The notes under the pieces: model-generated | Database searches by the model: none | What the model was told of the DNA's origin: nothing | What the model saw: the letters and a program-made list of their open reading frames with translations, nothing else | Shown: one piece after another, positions 1-55,301 of the stretch | Position numbering within the stretch: the first letter of the stretch is position 1 | Layout of the letters: every line of letters begins with the position of its first letter | Source of the DNA: Thermoanaerobaculia bacterium | GTDB taxonomy: Bacteria > Acidobacteriota > Thermoanaerobaculia > Multivoradales > JBCCEF01 | Assembly: GCA_036259255.1 (NCBI GenBank) | Contig: DATACC010000271.1 | Location: forward strand, 1-62,187 | Direction of reading: 5' to 3' | DNA: 62,187 nt | Program-made: the position numbers and the translations under genes

Positions 1-3000
1 CCCGGTCGATGCCGAGGATCTCCCCCCAGATTCCCTGGAGCAGCTCGGCCACGGGGCTCACCGGCCCCTCGGCATCACGGTCCACGGCCGGGGCTTCGGG
101 CGCCGGCAGGGCCCTGCGGTCCACCTTGCCGGTGGCGGTCAGGGGCAGCGCGTCGAGGACCACGATGGCGGCCGGCACCATGTGCTCCGGCAGGTGCTCG
201 CGCAGCCAGGCGCGCAGCGCCGGCACGCCGCCGGCCGCCGAAGGCGCCGCAGCGGCGCGGCCTTCCGCGCTGGCAGCCCCCCCGGCATCAGCCCCGGCAC
301 CGGCACCGGTACCGGCGATGGCCGCCCGCGAGACGTAGGCCACCAGCCGGCGGTCGCCGGCACCCTGCTCCGCCGCCACCACCACCGCCTCGCGCACCGC
401 CGGGTGCCGGGCGAGGACCGCCTCGATCTCCCCCAGCTCGATGCGGAAGCCGCGGATCTTCACCTGGTGGTCGCCGCGGCCGAGGAAGTCGAGCGCCCCG
501 TCGGGCCGCCAGCGCGCCAGGTCGCCGCTACGGTAGAGGCGTTCTCCCGGTGCGCCGTCCGGATCGGGCACGAAGCGTTCGGCGGTGAGTCGGCGGCGCC
601 CGAGGTAGCCCCGAGCCAGGACGCCGCCGAGCAGCAGCTCCCCGGCGACCCCGGCCGGTACCGGGCCGCCGGAGCGGTCCACCACCCGGGCGGAGCGCGC
701 CGCCAGCGGCCGTCCCACCGGCACCCTCGAGGAGCCGTCGCCGCCGGGAGGATGCAGGGTGGCGGTGATCACGGCCTCGGTGGGACCGTAGGCGTTGAGC
801 AGCCGGGCTCCGGCCAGCGGCGAACGGTGCCAGGAGGCCACGCCGGCGGCCAGCATCTCCTCGCCCCCCGCCATCACCAGGCGCAGCGACCGCGGCGCCG
901 TGGCCAGCGCCCGGGGGTCGTCGACCCAGCGGTGCCACAGGGCGGTGGGAAGGTTGGCGACGGTCAGCCCCTGGCGGGCCATCCAGTCCGACAGCTCGAC
1001 GGGCGCCAGCACGTCCGGCTCCCGCAGCACCAGCCGGGCGCCGGCGGCAAGCGCAGGCAGGATCTGCTCCAGCGAGACGTCGAAGCTGGGGGAGGCGAAC
1101 TGCAGCACCCGGTCGCCGGGCCCCAGGCCGTAGACCTCGGCCACCGCCCGGCAGTGGGCGGCGGCGGCCCCGTGGGGCACCCCCACGCCCTTCGGCTTGC
1201 CGGTGCTGCCGGAGGTGTAGATGACGTAGGCGAGGGCGTCGGGCGGTGGCGGCTCGGCGGACCGGGACAGGACCGGGGGGGACAGGGCAAGCGGGGACCC
1301 GCCAACCGTCCGCTCGGCGCCGGCGGTCGCCGCCAGCGGCAGCACCGGCACGCCACCGGCCCACGGCGGCGCGGCGCCGTCCGCGGTGAGGAGCACGGCG
1401 GCTCCGGAGTCGGCGAGCAGGAAGGTGAGGCGCTCGGCCGGCAGTGCCGGGTCGAGCGGCAGGTAGACGCCGCCGGCGCGGAGGATGCCGAGCAGCCCCA
1501 CGACCAGCGCCGGCGAGCGCTCCACCGCCAGCGCCACCACGGTCTCGAGCCCCACGCCGGCAGCCCCCAGGCGGCCCGCCAGCTCGTCGGCGGCGCGCAG
1601 CAGACCGCCGTAGGTCAGGTGCTCGCCGCCACCGGCCACGGCGACGGCATCCGGAGCGCGTGCCGCCCGCCGGGCGATCGCCTGCTGGACCAGCGGCGGC
1701 GGCTCGTCCCCAGGCGGCATGCTCGGCCCCCGGCCCCAGTCGCGAAGCTGCTGGCGCTCGGCGGGGGTGAGCAGCGGCAGGTCGCAGAGACGCGTGGCGG
1801 GGCTCGCCACGAGACCGGCGAGAAGCACCGCCCAGTGGCCGGCGGCGCGCTCCAGGGTGGCGGCGTCGAACAGGTCCGTGCGGTACTCCCAGGAGCCGGC
1901 GAAGCGTCCGCCGCGCTCGATCATCGCCAGCGTCAGGTCGAACTTGGCGGTGCGGCTCTCGACCTCCAGCGGCGTGAAGCGCAGCCCGGGCAGCTCCAGG
2001 CTCTCGCCCACCGAGGTGAGCAGCGAGAACATGACGTTGAACAGCGGCGCGTGGGCCAGGCTGCGATCGGGGGCGAGCTCCTCGACCAGCTTGTCGAACG
2101 GCAGCTCCTGGTGCTCCTGGGCGCCGAGCACCGTCTGGCGCACCCCGGCGAGGACCTCGCGGAACCCGGCGCGCAGGGACAGCCGGGTGCGCAGCGCCAG
2201 GGTATTGACGAAGAAGCCGATCAACGGCTCGAGCTCGCCGCGGTGGCGCCCGGCCGTGGGGCTCCCGACGCACACGTCCTCCTGCCTCGTATAGCGCAGC
2301 AGCAGCACCTTGTAGGCGGCCAGCAGCAGCACGAAGGGGGTAACGCCCTCGGACAGGGCCAGGGCCTTGAGGCCGCCGGACAGCGCCGCCGGCAGCTCGA
2401 AGGAGAGCCGGTGCCCCGCGAGCCCCGCCTCCGCCGAGGCGGGACGGTCGGTGGGCAGGTCGAGCACCTGCACGCCGTCGAGGGCGGTGCGCCAGTAGGC
2501 CGTCCTGGCCCGCAGCACCTCGCCGGTGAGCCAGCGCCGCTCCCAGGCCGCAAAGTCGGCGTACTGCACCGGCAGCTCCGGCAGTGGCGACGGGGCGCCG
2601 GCCGCGAAGGCGCGGTAGAGGGCGGCGAGCTCGCGCACCAGCACGCCGGAGGACCAGCCATCGGAGACGGTGTGGTGGAGGGTCAGGAGCACCACGTGCT
2701 CGCCGGCGGCGAGGGCGATCAGCCGGGCGCGCCACAGGGGCCCCTTCTCGAGGTCGAAGGGCGCGCGCCCCTCCGCCGTGGCCAACCCCCGTGCCGTCGC
2801 CTGCCGGCGCGCCGCCGGCAGGCCCCGCAGGTCGACGCGGGGTAGCCGGAACCGGGCGGGCGGCGCGACCACCTGCACCGGGTTGCCGCCGGCCAGCGGC
2901 AGGGTGGTGCGCAGGATCTCGTGGCGGCGCACGATCTCGCCGAGCACCCGCTCCAGCAGCGCGGCATCGAGGTCTCCCTCGACCCGGATCACCTTGGGCA

Positions 3001-3202: not shown

Positions 3203-7977
<4,775 letters not shown>

Positions 7978-7981
<4 letters not shown>

Positions 7982-10900
7982 CGCACCCCCGCCGTGCGCC
8001 GCTGCCGGCGCAGCTCGCGCTGGCGCTCCAGGGCATCGCGCCGTCCCTCACCCCGCTCGCCCGCCGCCTCCGCCTGCTGCGCCGCCTCGCGAGCCGCCGC
8101 CGCGCCGCCGGAGCCGTCCTCCAGGTGGGCGACCAGCGAGGCCACCGTGGTGCGCCGGAACAGCTCGACCATGGTGACGTCGCGGCCGCAGCGCTCGCGC
8201 AGCCGCGTGGCCACCTGCACCAGCAGCAGCGAATGGCCGCCGAGGTCGAAGAAGTTGTCGTGCAGACCCACCCGTTCGAGCCGCAGCACGTCTTGCCAGA
8301 TACCGGCGACGGCGGCCTCCAGCTCGGTGCCCGGGGCCACGTAGTCGGCGGCCAGCTCCGGGCGCAGCGCGTCCGGGGCCGGCAGGGCGGACCGGTCCAC
8401 CTTCCCGTTGGCGTTCAGCGGCAGCGCCGCGAGCGACACGAAGGCGGTGGGCACCATCGCCTCGGGCAGCCTCTCCACCAGGAAGGCGCGCAACTCGCCG
8501 GGGCTCACCGGCTCGGCGACGCCCACCGGCTTGCCGGCAGCGGGCACCACGTAGGCGACCAGGCGGGCCTCGCCACCATCGTCGACGCGGGCTGTCACCA
8601 CCGCCTGGCCCACGCCGCCGTGCTGGCGCAGCAGCGCCTCCACCTCCCCCGTCTCCACCCGGAAGCCGCGGATCTTGACCTGACCGTCGGTACGGCCGAG
8701 GAACTCCAGGGCGCCGCCGGGCAGGCGGCGCGCCAGGTCGCCGGTGCGGTATAGCCTCCCGCCGGGGGTGGACGGATCGGGGACGAAGCGCTCCGCCGTG
8801 CGGCCCGGCTGCCCCAGGTAGCCACGGGCCACCCCGGCGCCCCCGACGTAGAGCTCCCCCGGGGCCCAGGTGGGCACCGGCTGCAGCGCGGCGTCCAGCA
8901 GGTGGACGCGGGCATGGGCGAGGGGCCGGCCCAGCGGCACCGTGGCGCTGCGGTGGCCCGGGCCGGAGTCACTCGGGGCTGGATGGCCCGGGGCGGAAGG
9001 GCCCGGGTCGGAAGGGCCGGGCGCGGCCTCCGCCGGCGCCGGCACGGGGTCGGCGAGCACCCCGACCGTCGTCTCGGTGGGTCCGTAGTGGTTGTAGACC
9101 GCCAGCTTCGGCGCCAGGGTGCGCACCCGCGCGGCCAGCTCCCAGCCGAGGGCCTCGCCGCCGAGCACCAGCACGCGGCGCGGCAGCACCCGGTCGGGAG
9201 CCGAGGCGGTGAGCAGCGCCTCGAGGTGGCTCGGCACGATCTTCAGGCAGTCGATGCCGTGCTCGCCGGCGTAGGCCGAGAAAGCCTCCGGGTCGGAGAT
9301 CCGCTCGGCGGGCACCACGTCGAGGCAGCCGCCGCCGCACAGGGCCGGAAACACCATGGTGTGGCCGAGGTCGGCGGCGAACGTCGAGACGATGGCGAAG
9401 CGGCCTTCCGGGGGCCAGGCGATCCGCTCGCCGACCGCCTGCACGTAGGCGGCGAGCTGGCGGTGCTCCACCGCCACCGCCTTGGGGGTGCCGGTGGAGC
9501 CGGAGGTGAACAGCAGGTAGGCGAGGCTCTCGGGATGCACCGTCACCGGGGCCTGCACCGCCGCCGACTCCTCGGCAGCGCCGGTCTCGTCGTCGTTCCC
9601 ACCGCGCCCGGCGTCCCCATCGTTCCCCGCGTCCCCGGCGTCCCCGTCCAGGCCGAGCACCTCCGCCGGCCCGTCGGTGAACAGGGCCGCCAGCTCCGGC
9701 GCCGCCAGCACGCGGCGAGCCCCGGAGGCGGCCAGCAAGGCATCGAGGCGCCGGCGCGGCTGGGCCGGATCGAGGGGCACGTAGGCGGCCCCCGCCTCGA
9801 GCACCGCCAGCAGGGCCACCACCAGCTCGGGCGAGCGCTCGAAGCAGATCGCCACCCGGTCCTCCGGCGCCACTCCGGCGCGGCGCAACGCGGCGCCGGC
9901 GCGGCGCACCCGGGCGGCCAGCTCGCCGTAGCGCAGCACGCGAGCCCCGCACGCCACCGCCGGGCGCTCCGGGTGCAGGGCCGCCTGCCGGCGGATCTGC
10001 TCGGGGACGCTCACCGGCGCCGCCACCGAGCCCGCCGCTCTGGCGTTCGGTTCTCCGGGGCTCGGCTCTCCGGCGCTCGGTTCTCCGGGGCTCGCCACTC
10101 CGAGGCCCGGCTCCAGCTCTCGGCGCTCCTCGTCGCTCAGCACGCAGGCGTCGGCAACCGTCCGCGGACTGCCGGTGGCGAGGTCGCGCAGCAGGACGGT
10201 GAGCTGCCCCAGGGTGCGGCGGGCGTCGGGCGGGTCGATGCGGCGCGGATCGTAGGCCAGCTCGAGGCGGGGGGGCGCGGCCTCCGGCCCGGCGGCCTGG
10301 CGGCAGACCAGGTGCAGGGTGAACGGGTCGACGAACGAGACCTCCTCGCGGGGCCGCAGGCGGGCCCCACCCAGGCGCAGGGGCGCCGGCTCGCGGCGCA
10401 GCTCGAAGCCGAGCGGGAAGCAGGGCGGCACGCCGTCTTCGCTCTGCGCTCCGTCGCCGGCGGCCTGCCAGCTCCAGTACTCCTGGCTGGCCCGGGCCTC
10501 GGCCACCACCTCGGCGGCCCGGCGCACCAGCTCCTGCGGCGTGCGGCGGCCGTCGACGGTCACGGCCAGCGGTACCACCTTGGCGAGGAGCCCGGGCAAG
10601 CTCTCCAGCCCCTCGTACTCCCGGCCTTCCAGGGTGATGCCCAGCACCAGCTTGTCGCGGCCGGTGAGGCGGCCGAGCAACACCCGCCAGGCGGCAAGCA
10701 CCAGGTCGGCGAGGGTGGCGCCCGCCCGGCGGGTCAACGCTTCCCCGCCGGCCGCGACCGCGGCGTCCAGCTCCACCGCCACCACCGCCGGCGCGAATGG
10801 TGCCGCGGGGTCCGCGGCGCGCTCGCACGGCAGGCGCAGGCGCGCCGCCTCGGCGAGATCGAGGCGGCCCCAGGCCTCGGCCTCCACCGCCGCCTCGTCG

Positions 10901-11511
10901 GATTCGAGCAGGCCGTTCTGCCACTCGGCGAGGTCGGCGTACTGCATCGGCTCCTCGTCGTCCCCGGCCGCGGCGGCGGCATCCTCCGGCGCCGCCTCGC
11001 GAACCAGCTCGCGCACCAGGGCCTCCAGGCCGGCGCGGTCGAGGTGGAGCGGCGAGGCGCTCAGCACCAGCAGCCCGTGGCCGGGAGCGAGCCGGGCGAG
11101 GCACACCCGCAGAGGCGGGCCAGCCTCTGCCATGCCGCCGTCCGCCACGCCCTCCCCGTCGAGGAACTCGCCGCGGGCTTCGGCGAGGAGCCGGTCGACG
11201 GCGGCGGCGCGGTCCTCCACGGGCAGGGTTTGGAGATCGCGCTCCTCGACCTCCGGCACCCGGGCGGGAGCGACCGCCTGGAGCGGCATCGTCAGGCCCG
11301 GGAAGGAGCGCAGCTCGGTGCGCAGGATCTCGTGGCGGCCACCGACCACGGCCAGCGCGCGCCGCAGGAGTGCTGCGTCCAGCTCCCCCTCCACGTCGAA
11401 GGCCCGCAGAACCCGCCCGGGGCTCCGGTGCCGGCCGAGGTGCCAGGCGCGGCGCTGCTGGGGAGAGAGGCGGAACCCGCCCCCGCCCGCCGTCGTCGGC
11501 TCGCTACCCAT
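7978..11511 (-). CDS. NRPS: interface (dead C) domain-A(Asp)-PCP
   Basis: Start MGSEPTT...GFRLSPQQ at 11511 with GGAG RBS (track ORF over-extended). C-like domain has SPLHLDRAG instead of HHxxxDG. A code DLTKVGHVGK (TFAADLGHT, CLKIVPSH, NHYGPTETTVG). PCP FFDLGGHSL. Confidence 0.92.
10047..10091. repeat. 15-bp tandem repeat x3 (SPGEP/SAGEP/SPGEP)
   Basis: tcggttctccggggc / tcggctctccggcgc / tcggttctccggggc. Confidence 0.85.
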
Positions 11512-11525
11512 GGTGGACTCCTGGC

Positions 11526-17179
<5,654 letters not shown>

Positions 17180-17183
<4 letters not shown>

Positions 17184-18268
17184 CGCGCCGACCCGACCGT
17201 TTCCAGCCCGAGGCCCCGCGCCGCGGCGTCGGACTCCTCCCGCGAGCACGGCTCGGCCATGCCGACCACCACCAGCCGCTCGCCGGCGTAGGGCTGGCGG
17301 GCGTGGGCCACCGCCATGTTGTCGAGCATCAGCACGTCGCCCTCCTGCCAGGGAAAGACGATGGTCTCCTCCTGGTAGAGCCGGCGCAGATCGTCGAGAA
17401 CCTCCGCCTCGATGGGGGTACCGTCGCCGTAGTAGGTGTTGTAGGGCAGGTCCTCCTCCGGGAACTCGGCGAGCAGCGACTCGCGCACCTGGGGATCGAG
17501 GGTCGAGACGTGGAAGAAGGTGGCGTGGTTGAACCACGCCGGCTCGCCGGTGCGCGGATTGACCGCCACCGCGTCGCGGACCTGCCGGGTGCGCAGCCGG
17601 TCGCCGCCCTTCCACTCGGTCTCGATGCCCTTGTCGCGGCAGTAGCGGTCCACCTCCGCCGGGTCGTCGGTCTGGAAGGCGTTCTGCCAGCGCAGGCCGA
17701 AGCCGTCGTTGTAGTTGCGCACGTAGAGCACCTTGCGCTCGGCGAAGCGCTGGCGCACCGCCGGGTCCACCCGCTGGTAGATCCGGCAGGTGTCGGCGAT
17801 GGGCGTCTCGCCGCCGCGCTCCGGCGCCTTCAGGCAGCAGAAGTAGATCTTCAGCGGCCAGGTCACCCAGTAGGTACCCTCGTTGTGCAGGAAGATCCGC
17901 TGGTCCGACGGGTAGTCCGTGGAGGTGTACACCTGCTCGCCGACCTCGTGGCGAGGCGACGAGCGGTCCCGGTACTCGAGGCGTTCGCCGTCGGAGCTGG
18001 CCTCGACGAAGCCCTGGAACTCGTCCACGGTGCGCACGCCGAAGCCGCGAAACAGCAGCGCCCGGTGGGCGAGCAGCAGCTCGTCGACCTGGCGCCGGTT
18101 GCTGTGCGCCCAGGCGGCCAGGTCCATGCCCGGCACCGAGGGCTCCACCAGCACCGGCATGGGGCGGTCGGCCAGGAGCGGCCGTGTGCGCACCAGTGCC
18201 TCCTCCGACACGCTTACCGTCTTGCGCCGCAGGGCGCCGAAATCCTTCAGGCTCGGTAGGTTGTTCAT
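17180..18268 (-). CDS. Stand-alone TauD/TfdA-family Fe(II)/2-oxoglutarate dioxygenase (amino-acid beta-hydroxylase, SyrP-like)
   Basis: YTSTDYP...IFLHNEG...GGETP...WFNH...WQEGDVLMLDN...AHARQPY. AGGAG RBS before the ATG at 18268; alternative ATG at 18283 overlaps the upstream stop. Confidence 0.92.
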
Positions 18269-18279
18269 GGTTCTCCTTG

Positions 18280-23051
<4,772 letters not shown>

Positions 23052-23055
<4 letters not shown>

Positions 23056-26000: not shown

Positions 26001-26333
26001 TGCACCGTCGCGCAGCAGCTCGGCGATGCGCTCGGCGGTGGGCTCCTCGGCGGCGGCGGCCGCGGCCGTCTCGTCGCTCCAGGCGGCGGCGCCGGATTCG
26101 GCCATGGCCTGCACGGGGAAGCGCATGCCCGGCAGGCGGTGGAAGCTGGTGCGCAGGATCTCGTGGCGCGCCACCACGCCGTCGAGGGCCCGGGCCAGCG
26201 CGGCGGGCACCACCTCCCCTTCCAGCAGCACGGCGCAGCGGGCGCCGTAGGCACCACCCTCGCCACGCCACGCCTGCCAGGCCCGTCGCTGCTGCGGCGA
26301 CAGTCGAAATCCCTGCAGATCCTCGAACGACAT
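23052..26333 (-). CDS. NRPS: interface domain-A(Asp)-PCP
   Basis: MSFEDLQGFRLSPQQ with GGAG 6 nt upstream (alternative starts 26351, 26369). Dead C motif LPPVCADSR. A code DLTKVGHVGK. PCP FFELGGHSL. Confidence 0.9.
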
Positions 26334-26365
26334 CCGTTGCTCCGTTCCCATGGTTGTGCCCGCGC

Positions 26366-28015: not shown

Positions 28016-28046
28016 CTCTAGCCTGTCTCCTCGTTGGTGCCGCGGC

Positions 28047-31000: not shown

Positions 31001-33797
31001 GGTGGGCGGCGAGCACCGCCTCGATCTCGTCGAGCTCCACCCGGACGCCGCGCACCTTGACCTGGCGGTCGCGGCGGCCGAGAAACTCGAGCTCGCCGCC
31101 GCCCCCCCAGCGCACGAGGTCGCCGGTGCGGTAGAGCCGCGCCCCCGGCGTCCCGCCGGGAAACGGATCGGGCAGGAACCGCTCGGCGGTGGCCGCCGGC
31201 CGGCGGTTGTAACCGCGGGTCACCCCGGCGCCGGCGATGGCCAGCTCGCCGGCCACTCCCACCGGCAGCGGAGCGCCCCCCGCGTCGAGCACGTAGAAAC
31301 GCACGTTCTGGATCGGCCGCCCGATGGGCGCCGGACCGCCCTCCCCCGCCGCCGCCGGCAGGCGCCAGAAGCTGGAGGTCATGGTGCATTCGGTGGGGCC
31401 GTACTGGTTGACCACCGCGACGGCGGGGCCGAACAGGCGGCAGGCGGCGGCGCCGTCGGCCCGGTGGAGGACCTCCCCGCTCAGCACCAGAGTGGCCAAC
31501 GGCACCCACGGCAGCTCCCCCTCCGGCACCGAGCGCACCAGCTCCCGGAACAGGGTCGGTACCATGCCGAGCACCGTGTCGACGCCGTGGCGCCGCAGGG
31601 CCGCCAGCAGGGCCCGTGGATCCCGCGCCTCGGCCTCGGCCGGCAGCACCACCCGGCCGCCGGCCGCCAGCGGGCCCAGGGTGTCGCGGATCGAAGCGTC
31701 GAAGAACGGCGCCGCCACCTGGAGCACCACGCTGTCGGGGCCAACGCCGTACTCGCGCAGCACGAAGTCGAGGTAGTTGGCGGCGCCGCCGTGGGTGCTG
31801 AGCACGCCCTTCGGCCGGCCGGTGGTGCCGGAGGTATAGGTGACGTAGGCGAGGCCCGCGGGGTCGACCCGGACCTCGGGCCGGTCCTCCGGCGCCGCCG
31901 CCAGGAGGGCCGCATCGCGGTCGAGGAGGACTACCGCCCGCCCGGCCGAGGCGGCGGCGGGCAGGGCGGCCAGCAGGCGCTCCTCGCTCACCAGCACCCG
32001 GGCTCGGGCGTCGTCGAGCACGAAGGCGAGCCGCTCCCCCGGCGCCGCGAGGTCCAGCGGCAGGGCGGCACCGCCGGCCTTGAGCACGGCGAGCAGGGCG
32101 GCGACCAGGTTCGGACCGCGCTCCAGGGCCAGGGCCACCGGCACCTCCGGGCCGACCCCGAGGCGGCGCAGGTGGTGCGCCAGGCGGTTGGCCCGCCGGT
32201 CCAGCTCGCCGTAGGGCACGGTGACCTCACCGGCCACCAGGGCCACCGCCTCGGGCCGGCGCGCCGCCTGCTCCTCCACCCGGCGATGCAGGCCGGCCTC
32301 GGGCAGGTTTCCGCCGGACAGGGATACGTCGGGCAGGGCTTCGCCGGACCGAGCCTCGCCGGGAAGGGGCCGGGCGGTATCGTTGAAACCTTCCAGCACC
32401 AGCCGCCGCTCGGCCTCGCCGAGCAGCGCCAGGGTGGTGGCGGCGGCCTGTGGGCGGCGGACGGCGTCGGCGATCAGGGCGCTCCAGCCGGCGGCCAGCC
32501 GCTCGGCCGTGGCAGCGTCGCAGCGCGCCGGGTCGAAGCGCAGCGCGGCGGCGAGACCGTCGCCCCGGCGTCGGCACACCAGCTCCACCGCGAAGGGCTC
32601 GCCGAGCACCCGCTGCTCGAGCACCGCCACCCGCAGGTCCCGGACCACCGTCTCCGGCGCCCACTCGTCCCAGGCAAAGCCGGTGGACAGGCGCAGCGGC
32701 CCGTCGCCCTGGCCGGCGGCACCGGGGGCCTCCGGGTCGAAGGAGGTCTGCCAGCCGTCGGCCTCGCGGGCGGTGGCGGCGAGGCGGGCGGCAAGGGTGC
32801 CCAGGGTGGCGCGCGGATCGATCCCCACGCGCGTCGGCAGGCAGCGGGCGAAGGGACCGAGACCGTGGCGCAGATCCTCGTGGGGGCGGCCGTCGGCGGC
32901 GCGGCCCAGCACCACCTCGTCCTCGCCGGAGCGGCGCGCCAGCAGCAGCGCCCAGGCGGCGGCGGCGACGGCCGGCAGCGGCGCTCCGGCCGCCGCGGCG
33001 AGGGCCTCCAGGCCGGCCCGGGTGTCGGCGGCGAGGTCTACGGTCACCGTGTCCACCGCCCCCGTGTCTTCCGCCCCCGTGCCCGCGGCCCCCGTGCCCA
33101 CCGCCCCGGCTACGGCTCCGGCCTCGCCCCGGCCGGCGAAGGGGAAGGCCTGGAGCGGCAAGGAGGCGAGGCCGAGGCCGCGCCAGTACGCCTGCGCCTC
33201 GGGGGCGGGCTCGTCTTCGAGCAGCTCGTTCTGCCACTCGGCGGCGTCGGCGTACTGCAGCACCTCGTCGTCGTCACCCCCGCCCTGGTTCGGCTCCGCG
33301 TACTCCCGGACCAGCTCGCCGGCCAGCAGGCGCAGGCTCCAGCCGTCGGCGCACAGCGCCGGCCAGCCGAGCAGCAGGGCGTGCCGGCGCTCGCCCAGGG
33401 CGACGAGCACCGCGCGGGGCACCAGGGCGGCGGCGCCGGGGCGGGCGTCCTCGCCGAGGCGGCGCTGCAGCTCGGCGCGCTGCTCGCCGGCGGCGAGGGG
33501 GGCGAGGTCCGCCGTCTCCAGGGCCGGCGTTTCGAGGGCCGGTGTTTCGGGGGCCGAGCCGCCCACCTCGCCGATGCGTTGCACCGGCAGCCGCACCCCG
33601 GGCATCCGTTCGAAGCCGGTGCGCAGGATCTCGTGGCGCGCGACGACCCGGCCGAGAGCCGCGGCGAGACGGGCGCGGTCGAGCTCGCCGTCGAGCCGGA
33701 GCACGAGCTGGGCGCGGCACGGGGCGCCCTCCTCGTGCAGCCGCCACAAGCGGCGCTGCTGCGGCGACAGCCGGAAGCCTTGCAGAACCTCGGTCAC
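28047..33797 (-). CDS. NRPS: interface domain-A(unassigned)-PCP-C-TauD dioxygenase, 1916 aa
   Basis: GTG start VTEVLQGFRLSPQQ. Dead C motif WPALCADGW. A code about DARGVSQMTK. PCP GGHSL. C HHVVSDA. C-terminal TauD with WFHNES...GGETP...DNMLTAHGRYPF. Confidence 0.92.
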   Translation of the reverse strand: MTEVLQGFRLSPQQRRLWRLHEEGAPCRAQLVLRLDGELDRARLAAALGRVVARHEILRTGFERMPGVRLPVQRIGEVGGSAPETPALETPALETADLAPLAAGEQRAELQRRLGEDARPGAAALVPRAVLVALGERRHALLLGWPALCADGWSLRLLAGELVREYAEPNQGGGDDDEVLQYADAAEWQNELLEDEPAPEAQAYWRGLGLASLPLQAFPFAGRGEAGAVAGAVGTGAAGTGAEDTGAVDTVTVDLAADTRAGLEALAAAAGAPLPAVAAAAWALLLARRSGEDEVVLGRAADGRPHEDLRHGLGPFARCLPTRVGIDPRATLGTLAARLAATAREADGWQTSFDPEAPGAAGQGDGPLRLSTGFAWDEWAPETVVRDLRVAVLEQRVLGEPFAVELVCRRRGDGLAAALRFDPARCDAATAERLAAGWSALIADAVRRPQAAATTLALLGEAERRLVLEGFNDTARPLPGEARSGEALPDVSLSGGNLPEAGLHRRVEEQAARRPEAVALVAGEVTVPYGELDRRANRLAHHLRRLGVGPEVPVALALERGPNLVAALLAVLKAGGAALPLDLAAPGERLAFVLDDARARVLVSEERLLAALPAAASAGRAVVLLDRDAALLAAAPEDRPEVRVDPAGLAYVTYTSGTTGRPKGVLSTHGGAANYLDFVLREYGVGPDSVVLQVAAPFFDASIRDTLGPLAAGGRVVLPAEAEARDPRALLAALRRHGVDTVLGMVPTLFRELVRSVPEGELPWVPLATLVLSGEVLHRADGAAACRLFGPAVAVVNQYGPTECTMTSSFWRLPAAAGEGGPAPIGRPIQNVRFYVLDAGGAPLPVGVAGELAIAGAGVTRGYNRRPAATAERFLPDPFPGGTPGARLYRTGDLVRWGGGGELEFLGRRDRQVKVRGVRVELDEIEAVLAAHPAVREVAVVPVREALAAYWVPAGRDEPAPAALRELARRHLPEALVPSWFVALPGLPRTRTGKLDRAALPQPEQASASGGGDRPLGPVEALLATIWSRILGVEQIGPADDFFALGGHSLLAARLAARIQEAFRIELPLRTLFEDATLAGLARRVETALGAGERGAAPPLVPVGRRGRLPLSFAQQRLWFLQQLDPQSCAFNVPRALRLRGPLGATGAAALERALTEIVRRHEALRTSLREAGGEPFQVVEPARPVPLPRIDLGSVPEPVAAAESERLLRRWGRRAFDLAAGRLLRAALVHRDPAEHLLLFDIHHVVSDAWSMGVLTQELAVLYAAFSRGEPSPLPALPVQYADYAAWQRRWLTGDVLEGHLAYWRRRLATPPPELQLPFARPRPERPSYGGAQHSFRLTAELTRALRDLGRAEGATLFMVLAAAFKALLHRYTGVEDVAIGTDVANRNRVETERLIGFFVNVLVLRTDLAGDPTFRDLLAREREVAVGAFTHQELPFERLVEELQPERTAGRAPLFQYLLVLQNPDRRRLELPGLELEALEIDNRTVKFDLVLVLVETGDGLEATWKYSTDLFDAPGIRTLTRHLTTLLASVAERPGARLSQLEHLAESERKQDVTEKKQRKQADFAKFMNVEPAAVQLSRSRLVEMEPLPGVPGAAAPLMVRPAAEAVDLAEWVAGNHEVLEARLHEHGAVLFRGFGVDTAERFEAVAKAVAGELFDEYGDLPHDAVTGKVYTSTPYPPDRTIWFHNESSQLDSWPLRQLFLCVQPALEGGETPLVDCRRIYELLDAEVRDRFERLGVMYVRNYTPGLDVDWRDFFHTSDRAEVEAWCRRSDIACEWKADGGLRTRKVCPAVARHPRTGAKVFFNQIQAHHIACLPEEDRGPLLELFAVEDLPRHVYFGDGSPIPDELVLEIVELYRRNAVTFPWQKGDLVLVDNMLTAHGRYPFAGPRKILVAMGDMVSVDTVRCAELHHASA
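33048..33107. repeat. 15-bp imperfect tandem repeat x4 within interface domain
   Basis: cgtgtccaccgcccc / cgtgtcttccgcccc / cgtgcccgcggcccc / cgtgcccaccgcccc. Confidence 0.8.
33513..33557. repeat. 15-bp imperfect tandem repeat x3 (APET/PALET/PALET)
   Basis: cgtctccagggccgg / cgtttcgagggccgg / tgtttcgggggccga. Confidence 0.8.
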
Positions 33798-33804
33798 GGC
33801 GCCC

Positions 33805-36800
33805 TCAGGCCTCCAGCTCGCTCAGCCGCACGACACCGCCGCCCATCGCCACCAGCACCCGCCGCGGCGGGGTGAACGGCATGCGGCCGTGGGCGGTCAG
33901 CGTGTTGTCCAGCATCAGCACGTCGCCCTTCTGCCACGGGAAGGAAACCATTGAGTCGCGCACCACCTGGCGCACGTGCTCGAGCTCCGCCGGGTCCAGG
34001 GGCGAGCCGTCGCCGAAGTAGGCGTTGATCGGCAGCTCCTCCTCCGAGGTGGTGGCGAGCAGGGCGTCGGCGAGGTCGCCGAGGTTCGACGGGTGCCACT
34101 GGTCGACCTGGTTGAACCACACGGGCTCGCCGGTCTTCGGATGACGGATGGTGGCCGGACGCACCTGGCGGGTGGTCAGGCCGCCGTCGTCGCGCCAGCG
34201 GAAATCGATGCCGCCCTCGCGGCAGTAGGCCTCCACGGTGTCGCGGTCGGCGGTCTCGAACACCGTCTGCCACGACAGGCCGGCGCCGCGGTCGCCGTGC
34301 AGGTTGCGGGTGTAGAGGACGCCCTTCTCGGCGAAGCGGCTGCGCACCGCCGGGTCGATCTGCTGCCACACCTTGCGGCTGTCGGCGATCGGCGTCTCGC
34401 CGCCCTGCTGCGGCTCGACGTCGCAGTAGAAGAAGATCTTGCTCGGCCACTTGTGGGCGTAGGACAGCTCGTTGTGGAGCGACACGAAGTACTCCGCCGG
34501 GTACTCGGTGGAGGTGTAGACCTTGTCGCCCACCATCACCCGCGGCGACGAGCCCTCGACGTAGTTGGCGAGCTCCGGCGTCACCGTGTTGACGAAGCTC
34601 TCGAAGGCCGCGGGCGAGGCGACGGCGAAGCCGCGAAACAGGATGCCGCCGTGGACCAGCAGATCCCGCTCGACCTGCTCGGTGTTGCTGCGCACCCAGG
34701 CGGCGAGGTCCACGTCGTCCAGGTTGGGCCGCAGCACGAGGGGCAAGGTCGAGCCGTTGAGCGCTTCGCGGCGCACCAGCTCGTCCTGCGCGAGGTTGAC
34801 GCTGCGGCGCCTGGTGATCTTGAGCTTCTTCAAGTTGGAGGTGCTCACTTCGTCCTGCCTGCTCATTCGCTTCTCCGTTTCTCGGGTGCTGAGGGCGTCC
34901 ACCAGGACGCCGAGACGGGTATCGGGGGCGGTGACGGCGCGCTCGGCCAGCACCAGCAGCTCCTCGCGCAGCCGCGCCATGGTGGCTGCCTCGAAGAGGT
35001 CGGTCTTGTACTCGAAGGCGCCGGCCAGCCGGTCGCCGGCCTCCCCCATGTAGAGGGTGAAGTCGTACTTGGCCGTGCCATGCCGGACCGGCAGCCGCTC
35101 CAAGGTGAGCCCCGGCAGGGCAGCGGGGTCGGCGGGCGCGGCGTTCTGGTAGTTGAATACCACCTGGAACACCGGGCTATGGCCCGGATGGCGCTCGGGC
35201 CTGAGCTCCTCGACCAGCTTCTCGAAGGGCAGATCCTGGTGCGCGTAGGCACCCAGGGTGGTCTCGCGCACACGCGCCAGCAACTCACGGAACGTCGGAT
35301 CGCCGGACAGGTCGGTGCGCAGGGCCAGGGCGTTGATGAAGTAGCCGATCATGCCGTCGAGCTCCGGCCGGCTGCGGCCTGCCACTGGCGCGCCGACCAC
35401 CAGATCGAGCTGCCCGGTGAGGCGGTGGAGCAGCACCTGGAGCACGGCGAGCAGCACCATGAACGGGGTCGCTCCCTCGCGGCGGGCGAGCTCGCGCACG
35501 CGGGCCGACGACTCGGGCGTCAGGGCCACCGGCTCGATGGCCCCGCGGGCGCTCGGCCGTGCCGGGCGCGCCCGGTCGGTGCGCAGGTCGAGCACCGGAA
35601 GCGGCGGCGCGAGACGCCGGCGCCAGTAGCAGAGCTGGGCCGCCAGCAGATCCCCGGTGAGGTATCGGCGCTGCCAACCGGCGAAGTCGGCGTACTGGAT
35701 CGGCGGTTCCGGCAGCGGCGAAGGCCGCCCTGCCACGAAGGCCCCGTAGAGGGCCGCCAGCTCGCCGATCAGCACGCCCGCCGACCACTGGTCGCCGACG
35801 ATGTGGTGCATCGTGAACCAGGCGGCGTGTTGCTCGGCAGCCAGGCGCACCAGCAGCGCGCGCACCAGGGGGCCCCGGGCGAGGTCGAAGGGCCGCCGCG
35901 CATCGCGAGCGGCCGTGAGCAGCATCTCGGGCCGGCGACGCCCTGCCGGCAGGGCGGTGAGGTCCACCCACGGCAGCGGCCAGCGGCCCGGGGGCGCCAC
36001 ATGCTGCACCGGACCCTCGCCGAGCAGCGGAAAGCTGCTGCGCAGCGACTCGTGGCGACGCACCGTCTCGTCGAGGCTGCGCTGCAGCGCGCGGGTGTCG
36101 AGCCAGCCGGTCAGGAGCAAGCCGGCAGACTGGTTATAGAGCGGCGCGTCGGGCTCCAGGCGAGCCAGGAACCACTGGCGCTCCTGAGCGAAGGACAGCG
36201 GCAGGTCGCCGTCCCGCGGCAAACGCTCGATGGGCGGCAGCAGCGCGTCTCCACCGCCACCGAGCTGCGCCACGTGGGCCGCAATCCCGGCCACGGTGGG
36301 CTGCGCGAACAGCGTCGCGGGGGGCAAGTCCACGGCGAGCGCGGCGCGCAGCTCGCCGATCAGGCGCAGGGCGAGCAGCGAGTGGCCGCCGAGCTCGAAG
36401 AAATCATCGTCCAGGCCCACCCGGTCGATGCCCAGCAGCCGCTGCCAGATCTCCGCCACCGCCCGCTCGGTGCCGTCGCGCGGCGCCACGTAGACCGTCG
36501 ACAGGTCCGGCCGCGGGTAGGCCCCGGACGACGCGGCCCCAGGCGACGCGGCCCCGGTCAACGCCGCCCCGGCCGCTGCGGCGGCCCCTACGGTCCCGCC
36601 GCCGGCGACGTGGCCGAGCGGATCCACCACCACCTCGCACCCTCCGTCCCACGCCAGAACCCGGTGAAGAACCTCCACCGCATGCTCGGGCTCGACCGGG
36701 ACGCCGGCACTCCCCAGCCAGTGGATCGACACGGTGGGTCCGGCGCCCCGGGCGCTGCGGGCGTGGGCTGCGGCGTCGAGGGCCGCACCCGCGGCGGCGG

Positions 36801-39800
36801 CCACGAGGGGTTGCACGGCGAGCGGCCCGAGCATTGGGCCAGCGGTGGCCGCGGGAGCAGAGGCTGAATCCGGAGACCAGAAGGCCAGGAAATCGAGCTC
36901 CCCGCCGCCCAATGCCTCGCTCAGAACGGCGGCGCCCCGCACTCTGGCGGCATACGCCCGCTCGGCCTCGTCCCTGCCCTTGCCCGCGTCCTCGCCCTCG
37001 CCGTCCAGCGGGCCGTTCACGGCCTCGCCGGCGGCGTGCACGGCGCCGTGGATCGAGCCGAAGCTCTCCCGCGCCCGGGCCACCACCGCCGACACCTGCT
37101 CGGGGCTGGTGACGTCGGCGGTGGCGGTGAGCACCGCGGCACCGAGAGCCTCGAGCTCCTGCACCCGGCCCGGAGGCGCCGGGAACCGGTCGACGAGCAC
37201 CAGCCGCGCACGGACCCGGCGCGCCAGGCCGCGAGCGACGGCGAGGCCCGTCTCGCCCCACGCACCGGTGACCATGTAGACACCCCGCCCACGCAGCACC
37301 GCGCCGCCGGCGGCCTCGTCGAACGGCCCCGCGACGAGCTCGCGAACCCAACGGCGGCCGTGGCGGTAGGCCACTACCGGATCAGCGGGCGGGGCGGTCA
37401 TCTCGGCGGCGAGTCTGTCGGCAGCCAGCCCGTCGTCGGTCGCCATTCCGCCGGCGACCTCCGGGCCGAGGTCCACCGCCTGGCAGGTGAAGCCCGGCAG
37501 TTGGCCGGGGATCGCCGCGCAGGCTCCGAGCACCGCCACCTGCTCCGCCGTGAGGTCCTCGTCGCCGAAGACCGGCCGGGCGCCGGCGGTGAGCACCCGC
37601 AGGTCGATCGGCGCGCCGGAGGCGGCGGGATCGACGTTCGCGGCGAGCACCTGGACGAGGAGCAGCAGGCTGTCGAGGCCCGGAGGGAGGGGACCGTCCC
37701 CCGCCGCCTCCCGCCGGCCGCAGGACGCCGCAGCACCGAGGCCGCTGGCGTGGACCACGGTGCTCGGCATGTCTCCGGCAGCCCGCAGCACGGCCATCAA
37801 CCGGTGGTGGTCGGCGAGCCGGCGGAGATCCATCCGGTAGCGATGCTCCCCGGCCGCGGTGAAGCCTTCCCCGGCCACCACCGAGACCACTCGCCGCCCG
37901 GTCTCGCGCAGACGCCGCACCAGCGCGGCACCGACGCCGGAGGCATCCTCCACCACCAGCCAGGTGCCGGTGTCCTCGCCGGCCGGGCGCGGCCGGGGCG
38001 ACACCGTCTGCCGCCACACCGGGACCCGGATCCGGTCCGCCGGCCGGCGGTGCTCCGGCGCTGCCGGCACCGGGGAGGCGGCGGCCCGGGAGTCCTCGAT
38101 CCAGTAGCGGCGCCCTTCGAAGGGGTAGGTGGGCAGCGGCACCCGCCGGCGCCGGCGCCGGTCGTGGAAGGCGGTCCAGTCCACCCGCGCGCCGGCCAAC
38201 CACAGGCGGCCCAGCGTCGCCAGCAGGTGCCGGTGGACCGAGGCTCCCGGGGCCCCCTGCGGCAAGCCGGCGAGCGCGCCCGCGGCCTCGGCGCCCGGCC
38301 CCAGGGAACCGCCCGACCCCACCTCGAGAAGCACGGCCCCCATCTGCTGCAGGCTCTCCCAGGTGCCCTGGGGCCAGGATGCCGGCCGACCTAGCCGGGC
38401 CGCCCAGGCCGCGGCATCGGTGGCCTCCTCCGGGGAGAGCCAGGTACCGGTGGCGCCGGACATCAGCCGCAACCGGGGGGGAGCCAGGCGCAGGCGGCGC
38501 AGCGCGGCCTCCGTGGGGCGGGCGACCACCGAAAGGGCCTCCTCCAGCGAGAGCACGCCAGCCACGCAGGCGGCCACGAGCTCCCCCACCCCCTGGCCGA
38601 CGACGCCCTCGGGCCGCAGCCCCCACGAGATCCACAGCCGCGCCAGGGCGTGCTGCACGACGAGCTGGACCGCGTCGAGCTGGATCGTGTCGCCGTCGCC
38701 GGCCGGCTCCGGGCCGCCGACGGGACCCCCGCCGTGGAGGACCGCCTGGAGGTCGATTCCGAGCAGCGGCCCCAGGATGCCGGCGCAACGGTCGATCTCG
38801 GCCCGCAGCACCGGCTCGGCGGCGGCCAGTTCTGCCGCCATCGCGGGGTACCCACCGCTCCGCCCCGGGAACAGGAAGACCACCGGCAGGTCGCTGCGCT
38901 CGGCGGTACCGCTCCAGGCGTGCTCCGGATCATCGCCCGCCAGGGCGGCCGCGCCGGCCGCGAGATCCGGGCAGAGAACCACGCGGCGGTGCCGCAGCTC
39001 CTGCCGCCCGACCTGCAGGGTGAAGGCGACGTCCTCGGGCGTCAGCTCCGGGTGGTCGAGCAGGTACCGGTGCAGGTTGGCGCTCGCCACCTGCAGCGCC
39101 ATCGGCGTGGCGGCGGACACTGGCAACAGGTGCCACGGCCGCGGCGGATGGAGATCCGGCGACGGCGGCGGCAGCACCGGCGCCTCCTCCAGGACGACGT
39201 GGGCGTTGGTGCCGCCGATGCCGAAGGAGCTGACCCCGGCCCGGCGCGGGCCCTCCCCCGGCCACGGGCGCAGCGTGGTGTTGACGTAGAAGGGGCTGGC
39301 GGCGAAGTCGATCGCCGGGTTGGGGGCCGAGAAGTTGAGGCTCGGCGGCAGCTCGCGGTGCTCCAGCGCGAGCACCGCCTTGATCAGCCCCGCCGCACCG
39401 GCGGCGCAATCGAGGTGACCGATGTTGGACTTCACCGAGCCCAGGGCGCAGAAGCCCCGGTCGGCCGTCCCGGCACGAAAGGCACGGTTCAGCGCCGCCA
39501 CCTCCAGGGGGTCCCCCAGGGGGGTGCCGGTGCTGTGGGCTTCGACCAGGGTGACGCTGCGCGGCTCCACCCCGGCGGTCGCCAACGCGGTGGCGATCAC
39601 CTCGGCCTGCCCCTCCTCGCTCAAGGCGGTGAACCCGGCCTTCTGCGCACCGTCGTTGTTGACTGCCGCGCCGCGCAACACCGCCCGCACGGAGTCGCCG
39701 TCGGCCAGCGCGTCCTCCAGCCGCTTGAGCACCACGATTCCCAGCCCGCTGCCGAAGACGCTGCCCCCGGCGTCGGCCGAGAAGGCGCGGCAGTGGCCGT

Positions 39801-40468
39801 CCGGCGACGCCAGGCCGCCCGGGCGGTGGAAGTATCCGGCGGTCTGGGGCACCCGCACCGCCACGGCGCCCGCCAGCGCCAGGTCGCACTGGTACGCCAG
39901 CAGCCCCTGGGCCGCCAGGGAAACCGCCACCAAGGCGGTGGAGCATGCGGTCTGCACCCCGATACACGGACCTCGCAGGTCGAGCCGGTAGGCGACCTGC
40001 GTGGCCAGGTAGTCCTTCTCGTTGCCGATCAACGTCTGCAGCGCCTCCAGGCCCTCCTGGGCCTTGGGGCCGGAGGCGAAGCGAAGCCAATAGGTGTTCA
40101 GCCGTGCTCCCGCGTAGACACCGATCCGCTCCCGGCAGCGCCGCGGGTCGTAGCCGGCATCCTCCAGGGCCTCCCAGGCCGACTCCAGGAACAACCGCTG
40201 CTGCGGGTCCATCAGCTCCGCCTCGCGCGGGCTGTAGCCGAACAGGGCGGCGTCGAACAGATCGATGTCGTCGAGCACCGGCGCCGCCTTGACGTAGGCC
40301 GGGTCCGCCAGCACCTCCGGCGGCACGCCGGCGGCGGCCAGCTCGTCGTCGGAGAACCGGCGCACCGACTCGACGCCGGCCGCCAGGTTGCGCCAGTACT
40401 CCCCGGCGTTGCGGGCACCGGGGAAGCGGCAGGCGAGGCCGACGATGGCGATACTGTCGAGCAGCTCG

Positions 40469-40476
<8 letters not shown>
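33805..40476 (-). CDS. PKS-NRPS hybrid: KS-AT(inactive)-KR(degenerate)-ACP-C-TauD dioxygenase
   Basis: Start MRDELLDSIAIVG at 40476. KS TACST/EAHSTGT/KSNIGH. AT GQGVG, with the catalytic Ser lost and the domain shortened. KR lacks the Lys/Tyr residues. Carrier GGHSL. C HHIVGDQ. TauD SLHNEL...DNTLTAHGRMPF. Confidence 0.92.
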
Positions 40477-54972
<14,496 letters not shown>

Positions 54973-55301
54973 TGATACTCGGTCGTGGCGAACACACGAT
55001 AGAACTGCTTATATTGCAACACAACCTCCGCGACTAAATAGCTGCCGCACAAACGGCAAGCTTCATACGCCACTGGTCCTGCAGTCCCTCTAAAGTGCAC
55101 CCGACTTGGGAAAGCGGGACACCGCAAGGCGAGTTTTACGGCACCTGCTATTCCTAACAAACACTTTTAAATCAGATGAATCTTGTAAAATCAGCATCGA
55201 GATCAGGGGGCGCGGCCGTCATTTCCCCTTTACGCAGGATGCACAGCCGTGTTGCGGTATCCTGCCGAGAGTGTGAGAATTTCCTCGCCCCTGGAGGTGC
55301 C
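54973..55301. promoter_or_regulatory. AT-rich divergent intergenic region, likely holding the cluster promoter
   Basis: Sharp visible drop in GC between divergently oriented genes. No confident -35/-10 assignment. Confidence 0.6.

Follow-up and report, generated by a model that had tools for sequence, protein, structure and literature searches.

What does the large hybrid polyketide synthase (PKS)-nonribosomal peptide synthetase (NRPS) operon of an uncultivated, soil-type Thermoanaerobaculia bacterium (Acidobacteriota) make, and does its product bind metal? The operon lies on contig DATACC010000271.1 of assembly GCA_036259255.1, which was analyzed as a whole (62,187 bp, hereafter the window; contig C271 of a fragmented metagenome-assembled genome, MAG). 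It runs on the minus strand from position 54972 to position 2 and comprises 12 genes, lettered L to A from the first gene of the operon to the last (Table 1), that together encode 18,300 amino acids and 11 modules. The original prediction, made from the letters of the DNA, had proposed an acylated thiazole peptide-polyketide rich in metal ligands. We assign a probability of about 0.5 to the reading that the product, like the cyanochelins, is a beta-hydroxyaspartate-type metallophore, amphiphilic and able to bind Fe(III). What carries this reading is the homology of the operon's hydroxylase/interface-domain pairs to those of a proven siderophore cluster which, with the specificity codes of the adenylation (A) domains, points to a chelator-forming pathway for beta-hydroxy-Asp and beta-hydroxy-His.

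Interface domains and beta-hydroxylation

The domain map, drawn from Pfam matches, internal phmmer comparison and catalytic motifs, revealed a regular pattern in which every protein ending in an active condensation (C) domain, namely L, J, I, F and D, precedes one that starts with a C-like domain devoid of the HHxxxDG motif. We designate the latter an interface (I) domain, a definition drawn from citing papers, as far as these relay it, and from comparison with the cyanochelin B cluster. Five junctions fit the pattern (L/K, J/I, I/(H)/G, F/(E)/D and D/C, with intervening genes in parentheses), where the original prediction had counted three. All five interface domains give weak Pfam Condensation matches and, at the position of HHxxxDG, carry a P-x-L-C/A-x-D type of motif (PGLAGD, PALCAD, PPVCAD and PVLCGD, with SPLHLD in gene C); identity is 32-42% among the five and 24-31% between them and the true C domains. 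In a maximum-likelihood tree that also included 11 true C domains, 12 interface domains (five from the window, one from contig C60 of the same MAG, three from other Acidobacteriota, two from the cyanochelin B cluster and one from Methylocystis) formed a single clade with support of 100/100, set apart from the true C domains by a branch of 1.19. A tblastn search with the gene G interface domain against annotated plasmids returned Leptolyngbya plasmids as the top matches, among them plasmid 2 of strain NIES-3755, which carries the cyanochelin B cluster.

A partner dioxygenase of the TauD family is encoded at the junctions involving J, I and E and at neither K nor C, and a radical S-adenosylmethionine (SAM) enzyme gene is also present at the G junction. 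All three TauD domains match PF02668 (E values of 7e-45 to 2.5e-53; 154-182 bits against a cut-off of 27) and contain HNE together with the distal histidine of AH(A/G)R, the iron triad, in agreement with the original prediction of three HxE...H dioxygenases. NCBIfam offers no specific name for the TauD or the interface domains. Identities to the two cyanochelin B hydroxylases range from 41 to 52%; the TauD domain of gene I scores highest, with 52% to the fused cyanochelin hydroxylase, and is 58% identical to the TauD domain of the acidobacterial locus L009, while TauD E is 49% identical to a free-standing Methylocystis TauD whose partner A domain has the His-like code DSACIAEVWK. The predicted beta-hydroxylation of Asp-6 (gene G) and of the His-like residue (gene D) is well supported by these homologies, which uphold the beta-hydroxy-Asp and beta-hydroxy-His of the original prediction, and hydroxylation of residue X (gene I) is likely. 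Asp-2 and Asp-9, which the original prediction took as unmodified, each possess an interface socket without a neighboring hydroxylase, so that assuming them to be unmodified is not safe; they may be hydroxylated too.

The cluster with which these parts can best be compared is that for cyanochelin B on plasmid 2 of Leptolyngbya sp. NIES-3755 (AP017310.1; PMC12628792), a proven photoreactive siderophore that contains a thiazole and two beta-hydroxy-Asp residues (PMC12628792; cyanochelin C preprint). Both clusters are hybrid PKS/NRPS systems for an acylated peptide with thiazole and beta-hydroxy-Asp, and both contain C-TauD/I-A-T and C/free TauD/I-A-T junctions, where T denotes the thiolation domain. 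The two interface-partnered A domains of the cyanochelin B cluster have the code DLTKIGHVGK, identical to the window's Asp code at 9 of 10 positions, the interface motifs LPALCAD and LPSLCAD are of the window type, and a module of ketosynthase (KS), acyltransferase (AT) remnant, heterocyclization (Cy) and Cys-specific A domains carries an AT remnant that aligns closely with that of gene J. Identities to the parts in the window amount to 52% for TauD, 46-49% for the Asp A domains, 51% for Cy, 52-55% for KS and 31-36% for the interface domains. The cyanochelin B line starts with a fatty acyl-AMP ligase and carrier protein (FAAL-CP) and forms its heterocycle directly on the acyl chain via a non-elongating ketosynthase (KS0, with QGTGT), whereas the window has no loader, places an Asp ahead of the thiazole and retains the His in its KS. 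The window further differs in having five interface junctions, two of them without a hydroxylase, about twice as many modules and, as extras, a His module with an O-methyltransferase, a B12-binding radical SAM gene and two further PKS modules. The two hosts belong to different phyla, Cyanobacteriota and Acidobacteriota.

Siderophore beta-hydroxylases acting on Asp and His (IbetaH-Asp, TbetaH-Asp and IbetaH-His) and associated with NRPS interface domains, as for alterobactin, cupriachelin and histicorrugatin, were reportedly described by Reitz et al. in 2019. As in the window, the hydroxylases of these systems are TauD-family enzymes, fused after a C domain or free-standing, with Asp and His as substrates, and a noncatalytic member of the condensation superfamily lies ahead of the A domain for the hydroxylated residue; the window differs in having five interface domains per line, one with an A domain that cannot be assigned and one beside a radical SAM gene. 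A similar arrangement was noted on Methylocystis bryophila plasmid pDSM21852-1 (NZ_AP027150.1:74798-77175, locus L189), where the free TauD mentioned above precedes an NRPS whose first domains are an interface domain and the DSACIAEVWK A domain. That cluster also carries a 2,4-diaminobutyrate (Dab) transaminase gene and an MbtH gene and looks like an uncharacterized beta-hydroxy-His metallophore-type cluster in a methanotroph.

The A-domain codes, extracted from a multiple alignment on GrsA anchor motifs, bear out the earlier claim of three Asp modules with an identical code, since the first A domain of gene K and those of genes G and C all read DLTKVGHVGK. These domains are only 51-56% identical over their whole length, which argues for a common substrate and not a recent duplication. 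The code is that of a hydroxy-Asp residue in tistrellabactin (PMC10391617) and is listed as Asp, rarely Asn (PMC12283262). The second A domain of gene K (DLWNMSLIWK) matches at 9 of 10 positions each of two codes, DLWNLSLIWK and DLYNMSLIWK, listed for Cys paired with an oxidase (Ox) domain (PMC12283262), and gene K combines a Cy domain bearing DxxxxD, this Cys-specific A domain and a flavin mononucleotide (FMN) oxidase domain, the composition of the thiazole module that the original prediction had recognized. Gene F would activate Gly (DILQLGVIWK, 9 of 10 to DILQLGMIWK; PMC12283262), and the code of gene D, misread earlier and here corrected to DSATVAEVWK, agrees at 8 of 10 positions with DSALIAEVWK, a His code that accepts beta-hydroxylation (PMC12283262). 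The Arg-like code of gene A, DVENMGAITK, conforms at 8 of 10 positions to the Arg consensus D[AV]ED[IVL]GA[VI][TD]K (PMC12283262); its exact form had no match in a search of the literature and supplements. The A domain of gene C also contains, after its A5 motif, an insertion of about 35 residues rich in Pro, Ala, Ser and Gly (PAPAEAAPGPSDPGPSAPGHPAPSDSGPG) that is absent from the other Asp domains.

Candidate methylations of the His-like and Asp residues

Two genes of the operon might alter the putative ligands further. The A domain of gene D is interrupted at residues 985-1172, between the A core and the A10 end (a8/a9), by a methyltransferase (MT) with the SAM motif DVGANVG. Type II methyltransferase (M) domains lie between a8 and a9, carry DVGx(N/H)xG and O-methylate the aliphatic hydroxyl of Ser or Thr (PMC8341866); by insertion site and motif, gene D belongs with these side-chain O-methylating interrupted A domains. 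The KtzH/ColG-type enzymes share both features and have aliphatic beta-hydroxyls of Ser and Thr as their known substrates (PMC8341866), whereas the host A domain of gene D is His-like and its hydroxyl would need prior installation by the free TauD; the survey of interrupted A domains describes no such His module (PMC8341866). The natural inference is that the gene D MT would O-methylate the beta-hydroxyl of hydroxy-His. The original prediction had likewise proposed this O-methylation.

Gene H matches the PhpK-family model TIGR04479 over its full length at 640.2 bits (curated cut-off, 600) and contains a B12-binding domain (PF02310) and the sequence CAFKCAFC (CxxxCxxC) at residue 261, all of which it has in common with the PhpK/BcpD P-methyltransferases. 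Unlike these, it lies inside an NRPS operon without a phosphonate pathway and has relatives that adjoin Asp or Asn modules, and it is more likely to C-methylate a carrier-bound residue than to act as a P-methyltransferase. Its best match among all GTDB species is 66% identical and among 40 relatives 70% identical (genome G008), and genomes of the same family have no homologue. Most homologues of 61-66% identity in Acidobacteriota directly precede a noncatalytic C-like piece and an A domain. The code of that A domain is the Asp code DLTKVGHVGK at three loci (L001, L009 and L011) and an Asn code at three others (DLTKIGEVGK or DLTKIGEVCK at L002 and L012, the variant DLTTIGEVCK at L008). Locus L009 repeats the whole cassette C-TauD/radical SAM/I-A(Asp), and at L004 a C domain intervenes between the radical SAM gene and the interface domain and the next A code is of the Gln type. 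Separately, it was observed that at L002, L008 and L012 (about 11640-12500) nothing but the C-terminal half of a C-like domain (about 270 amino acids) separates the radical SAM gene from the Asn-coded A domain, an arrangement that is a truncated version of the interface-domain cassette.

Gene H most probably methylates the carrier-bound Asp of gene G (Asp-6), as judged from its position, and a literature search found no precedent for a B12 radical SAM enzyme that makes methyl-Asp on an NRPS. It is tempting to go further and propose that the interface domain is a general docking socket that recruits varied trans-acting tailoring enzymes (fused TauD, free TauD and PhpK-family radical SAM), and that the recurring cassette of radical SAM gene, interface or half-C domain and A(Asp/Asn) performs an undescribed on-line C-methylation of Asp or Asn to give 3-methyl- or 3-hydroxy-3-methyl-Asp. 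In this operon, the five sockets would serve all three kinds of enzyme. We consider this generalization less likely than not.

Predicted product and its role

According to the collinear model, the PKS module of gene L, composed of KS, AT, dehydratase (DH), ketoreductase (KR) and acyl carrier protein (ACP) domains with canonical KS motifs (DTACSS/HGTGT/NIGH), GHSTG in AT and HxxxGxxxxP in DH, would make a 2-enoyl or polyenoyl chain, possibly by acting iteratively, and its terminal C domain (HHIAVDG) would join this chain to Asp. The domain annotation of the window shows no loading module ahead of gene L, and it is by analogy that iteration comes into question. MchA of the myxochromide system is a KS-AT-DH-KR-ACP protein without a loading module that heads an NRPS line and makes a polyene acyl chain; gene L differs in having its own C-terminal C domain, and iteration of L is only a possibility. 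The Cys residue would next be cyclized and oxidized to a thiazole (module 3). Module J has a KS that retains Cys/His/His and a C domain with HHIVGDQ, and its dead AT, which the original prediction had recognized (GQGVG, with about 100 amino acids deleted), is accompanied by an equally dead KR lacking both the Tyr and the GxGxxG NADPH motif. The module might add a C2 keto unit if its ACP were loaded in trans, or it might merely hand the chain on. The residues to follow would be the unassigned X, Asp, Gly, the His-like residue, Asp, a C2 (beta-hydroxy) unit and an Arg-like residue. By homology with cyanochelin B and other siderophore systems, each interface junction would position a TauD-type beta-hydroxylase on the carrier-bound residue, such that the TauD domain of J would act on X, that of I on Asp-6 and the free TauD E on His-8. 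The MT in the His module would then O-methylate the newly made beta-hydroxyl, and the PhpK-family radical SAM enzyme would methylate Asp-6 while it is carrier-bound.

This order agrees module by module with the original prediction, which proved incomplete in that the line probably has about 16 modules. The first 141 nt of the window overlap exactly with the last 141 nt of contig C194 (T-C-A start), C194 and C118 have a common terminal 141-mer, and another 141-mer is common to the right end of C118 and to the left and right ends of C92, which, its ends being alike, is a module-length repeat unit (3,240 nt). The right end of C59 is 98% identical to C118, and C59, C73 and C72 are joined by exact 141-nt overlaps; repeats in this contig chain are 97-98% identical, and none of the other NRPS contigs of the MAG shares sequence of at least 97% identity with the repeat tangle that starts from C194. 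The exact joins extend gene A to C-A(Arg-like)-T-C-A and onward; there follow repeat modules with the Val code DALWLGGTFK, an A domain for a basic residue (DMEDSGAITK) and, on C72, A(DLFNNALTYK, Ala)-T-thioesterase (TE), with the TE confirmed by Pfam. The line of about 16 modules would probably thus append to the Arg-like residue two or more Val, a second basic residue and Ala-TE, and the assembly-graph overlaps predict a product of about 16 building blocks. Three other contigs with a TE (C153, C163 and C93) were considered as the end of the line; none reaches 97% identity to the repeat tangle, and C72 was preferred. Beside the C72 TE lie genes for a MacB/FtsX-type permease, a BlaR1-type M56 peptidase and a BlaI-type repressor. 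Of what the original prediction expected in the left-hand continuation, the probable continuation yielded a TE and a MacB-type permease and no TonB receptor. An MbtH-like gene was found on MAG contig C201.

A metallophore role is favored by the presence of several potential bidentate ligands and by the combination, as in the cyanochelins, of an acyl chain, a five-membered heterocycle and beta-hydroxy-Asp. A series of observations weighs against it. In keeping with the original prediction, annotation of both the flank and the operon and a scan with the Fur consensus revealed no receptor, exporter or Fur box in the window: TonB receptor, binding-protein and ABC-importer genes are absent there and from the surroundings of the probable TE end, the 12 TonB receptors in the MAG are all encoded on contigs without an NRPS, and the Fur consensus, which is enterobacterial and may not be that of the host lineage, had no match in the window at up to three mismatches. 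With the assembly fragmented and 80% complete, the absence of uptake genes is weak evidence. With about 16 building blocks and a Val-rich tail, the product would be long for a siderophore, His-8 would lose its beta-hydroxyl ligand on O-methylation, and the O- and C-methylations together may block or alter two of the ligands proposed. Beta-hydroxy-Asp also occurs in non-siderophore lipopeptides such as the syringomycin family and turnercyclamycin, which count as false positives (PMC12971057). Other points bear on the predicted structure: there is no loading module and no starter can be assigned, the activities of module J and of the KR of gene B are uncertain, the code of module 5 (DARGVSQMTK) had no match in the literature and supplement search, the radical SAM enzyme and the MT were assigned their targets by position, and the repeat tangle is joined to C59 by 98% similarity without an exact overlap. 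In addition, the closest homologue of gene H (G008:C14:69213-70847, from the same order) has no NRPS domain within tens of kilobases on either side, so that this family is not restricted to NRPS contexts.

The product could instead be a non-metallophore amphiphilic lipopeptide, for instance a membrane-active or calcium-dependent antibiotic, in which the acidic beta-functionalized residues, with the X-Asp-Gly stretch and three Asp, bind Ca2+ or a cellular target and membrane insertion falls to the acyl chain and the Val-rich tail. In malacidins, a polyunsaturated acyl tail occurs together with 3-hydroxy-Asp, 3-methyl-Asp and an Asp-Gly motif. The length of the line, with its Val repeats and two basic residues, agrees with such a role, as do the lack of uptake genes, the MacB-type efflux permease and BlaI/BlaR1 sensor pair adjoining the probable TE, the methylations that would change the would-be ligands and the existence of the non-siderophore beta-hydroxy-Asp lipopeptides (PMC12971057). 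However, the interface-domain/TauD junction has so far been associated with siderophores (antiSMASH 8 paper; cyanochelin C preprint), the nearest characterized homologues of the parts belong to a proven siderophore cluster, the canonical Asp-X-Asp-Gly calcium motif is absent from the predicted order, and no transporters are annotated in the approximately 55 kb inspected of the cyanochelin B plasmid either. We regard a lipopeptide of this type as a real but minority possibility. A bleomycin-type pathway, suggested by beta-hydroxy-His and thiazoles, was rejected because its module order and hydroxylase type differ, and the flank glyoxalase gene sits with MeaB and acyl-CoA dehydrogenase genes and looks like primary metabolism.

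Departures from the metallophore structure as drawn have also to be weighed. Gene order might not be assembly order, or modules might be skipped or inactive, and the product would then be shorter than or unlike the collinear prediction; the dead AT and KR of module J, the missing loading module, the reliance of five junctions on protein-protein docking and the paralogous parts elsewhere in the MAG (I-A(MT)-T on C60, Cy on C86/C220, TauD on C47) leave room for this. Yet the 12 genes are all intact, point in one direction and show translational coupling, the C-ending proteins are each followed by an interface-starting protein as in the collinear cyanochelin B cluster, and the AT remnant of J is the conserved remnant of the cyanochelin KS0 module and thus not a product of random decay, so that we consider a non-collinear product improbable. 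It is less probable still that module 5 loads an anionic phosphinate or phosphonate amino acid and that gene H is a true P-methyltransferase like PhpK in the phosphinothricin tripeptide pathway. Gene H does exceed the curated cut-off of TIGR04479 and directly follows the gene with the unassigned A domain, whose pocket Arg at position 239 suits an anionic side chain, but that model describes a subfamily and not an equivalog, and the acidobacterial homologues precede Asp-, Asn- or Gln-coded modules, not a DARGVSQMTK A domain. Moreover, the window contains no phosphonate pathway (phosphoenolpyruvate (PEP) mutase and others), and the single PEP-mutase match in the rest of the MAG is to a generic superfamily, a family that also matches the E. 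coli and B. subtilis controls.

Gene map, genomic setting and significance

The host MAG spans 4.07 Mb in 364 contigs with 73% GC and is about 80% complete; comparison of RpoB gives 75% identity with a Thermoanaerobaculia MAG, 73% with an uncultured Acidobacteriota MAG and 64-66% with other Acidobacteriota. As 75% GC fills the list of open reading frames (ORFs) with shadow frames, genes were called by third-position GC (GC3 frame analysis) and checked with Pfam. The joints between the 12 operon genes are mostly overlaps of 4-8 nt or gaps of 14 nt, and gene E shares 4 nt with each of its neighbors, at the stop of F and at the start of D. An exact-protein look-up, a metagenome scan and the radical SAM searches of GTDB species and the 40 relatives revealed no orthologous cluster elsewhere: the look-up of gene B returned no record, and the scan with the last module returned generic C-A modules only, at 50% identity at best.

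Table 1. Features of the operon and its promoter region (I, C-like interface domain; T, thiolation domain; aa, amino acids)
Feature	Position	Strand	Basis or remark
Gene L, 2364 aa: KS-AT-DH-KR-ACP-C	47878..54972	-	Pfam, domain map, motifs
Gene K: I-A-T-Cy-A(Ox)-T	40469..47881	-	Pfam, domain map, motifs, codes
Gene J, 2223 aa: KS-AT remnant-KR remnant-ACP-C-TauD	33805..40476	-	Pfam, domain map, motifs
TauD domain of J	33856-34746	-	HNE
Gene I, 1916 aa: I-A-T-C-TauD	28047..33797	-	Pfam, domain map, motifs, code; C HHVVSDA
Interface domain of I	32403-33776	-	WPALCAD
TauD domain of I	28119-29000	-	HNE
Gene H, 549 aa: B12-binding radical SAM enzyme, PhpK-family	26366..28015	-	Pfam, NCBIfam TIGR04479, motif
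Gene G, 1099 aa: I-A(Asp)-T	23052..26351	-	Pfam, domain map, code
Interface domain of G	25041-26309	-	LPPVCAD
Gene F, 1591 aa: C-A(Gly)-T-C	18280..23055	-	Pfam, domain map, code
Gene E, 367 aa: free-standing TauD-type Fe(II)/2-oxoglutarate dioxygenase	17180..18283	-	HNE...H
Gene D, 1885 aa: I-A(His-like, MT inside)-T-C	11526..17183	-	Pfam, domain map, code
Interface domain of D	15864-17177	-	LPVLCGD
FkbM-type methyltransferase of D	13668-14231	-	DVGANVG
Gene C, 1177 aa: diverged I-A(Asp)-T	7978..11511	-	Pfam, domain map, code
Interface domain of C, diverged	10102-11469	-	SPLHLD
A domain of C	8401-9987	-	insertion after A5
Gene B, 1592 aa: KS-AT-KR-ACP	3203..7981	-	Pfam, domain map, motifs
Gene A, first 1067 aa: C-A(Arg-like), runs off contig	2..3202	-	Pfam, code; C HHTVSDG
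Divergent promoter region, gene L / ORF 55176-56147	54973..55175		about 50% GC, AT-richer; no Fur-box match

At the B/A junction, the TAG stop of gene B (3203-3205) is followed by the TTG start of gene A (3200-3202) as the very next codon in the same frame, with a Shine-Dalgarno-like GAGGGAG run about 8 nt upstream of the TTG; the junction is either a case of tight termination-reinitiation or one former ORF split by a single nonsense codon. The right flank (55-62 kb) carries an ORF without a match and genes for an M12B protease, a glyoxalase/epimerase, MeaB and an acyl-CoA dehydrogenase, and as this is primary metabolism the cluster starts at gene L. The unmatched ORF (55176-56147 on the plus strand, 323 aa) is divergent from the operon and directly upstream of the cluster promoter; its GC3 of 0.90 is a good coding signal, and Pfam and NCBIfam searches returned no match even at E = 1.

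Several other contigs of the MAG (C60, C86, C220 and C47) carry these unusual parts once more, as a second and paralogous set. Contig C60 encodes C / I-A(FkbM MT)-T with an interface domain that groups as sister to the one in gene D (42% identity, support 96/95), C86 and C220 encode two more T-Cy-A pieces, and C47 encodes a C-domain end, a free TauD (60% identical to E) and an interface-domain start that runs into a short-chain dehydrogenase/reductase (SDR)-like frame. The MAG probably holds a second related cluster. On C163 (12967-26587), which has no overlap link to the window, an NRPS end of A-T-C-A-T-TE precedes three genes whose products resemble, on inspection by eye, a PvdE/SyrD-type cyclic-peptide ABC exporter, an FtsX/MacB-type permease and a penicillin acylase (PvdQ-like), a set reminiscent of acylated-siderophore maturation.

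Hybrid PKS-NRPS systems with interface domains are of a kind already known; what is new here is the combination of five sockets per line, one of them beside a radical SAM gene and another with an unassignable A domain, with a His module that contains an O-methyltransferase. Acidobacteriota are among the most abundant soil bacteria, yet their natural products are almost entirely uncharted; a recent survey scored only 9 of 836 acidobacterial genomes as peptide-metallophore producers (PMC12971057). The cluster described here would be a large and chemically dense example from this phylum, with a predicted thiazole, up to five beta-functionalized residues, an O-methylated hydroxy-His and possibly a C-methylated Asp. 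The interface-domain/hydroxylase device known from siderophores of proteobacteria and cyanobacteria recurs in this acidobacterium at five junctions, two of them without a neighboring hydroxylase. Should the radical SAM cassette methylate Asp or Asn on the carrier, NRPS tailoring would gain a new reaction, one readily assayed in vitro, and if the product binds iron, the photoreactive beta-hydroxyaspartate siderophores would extend to a new phylum.

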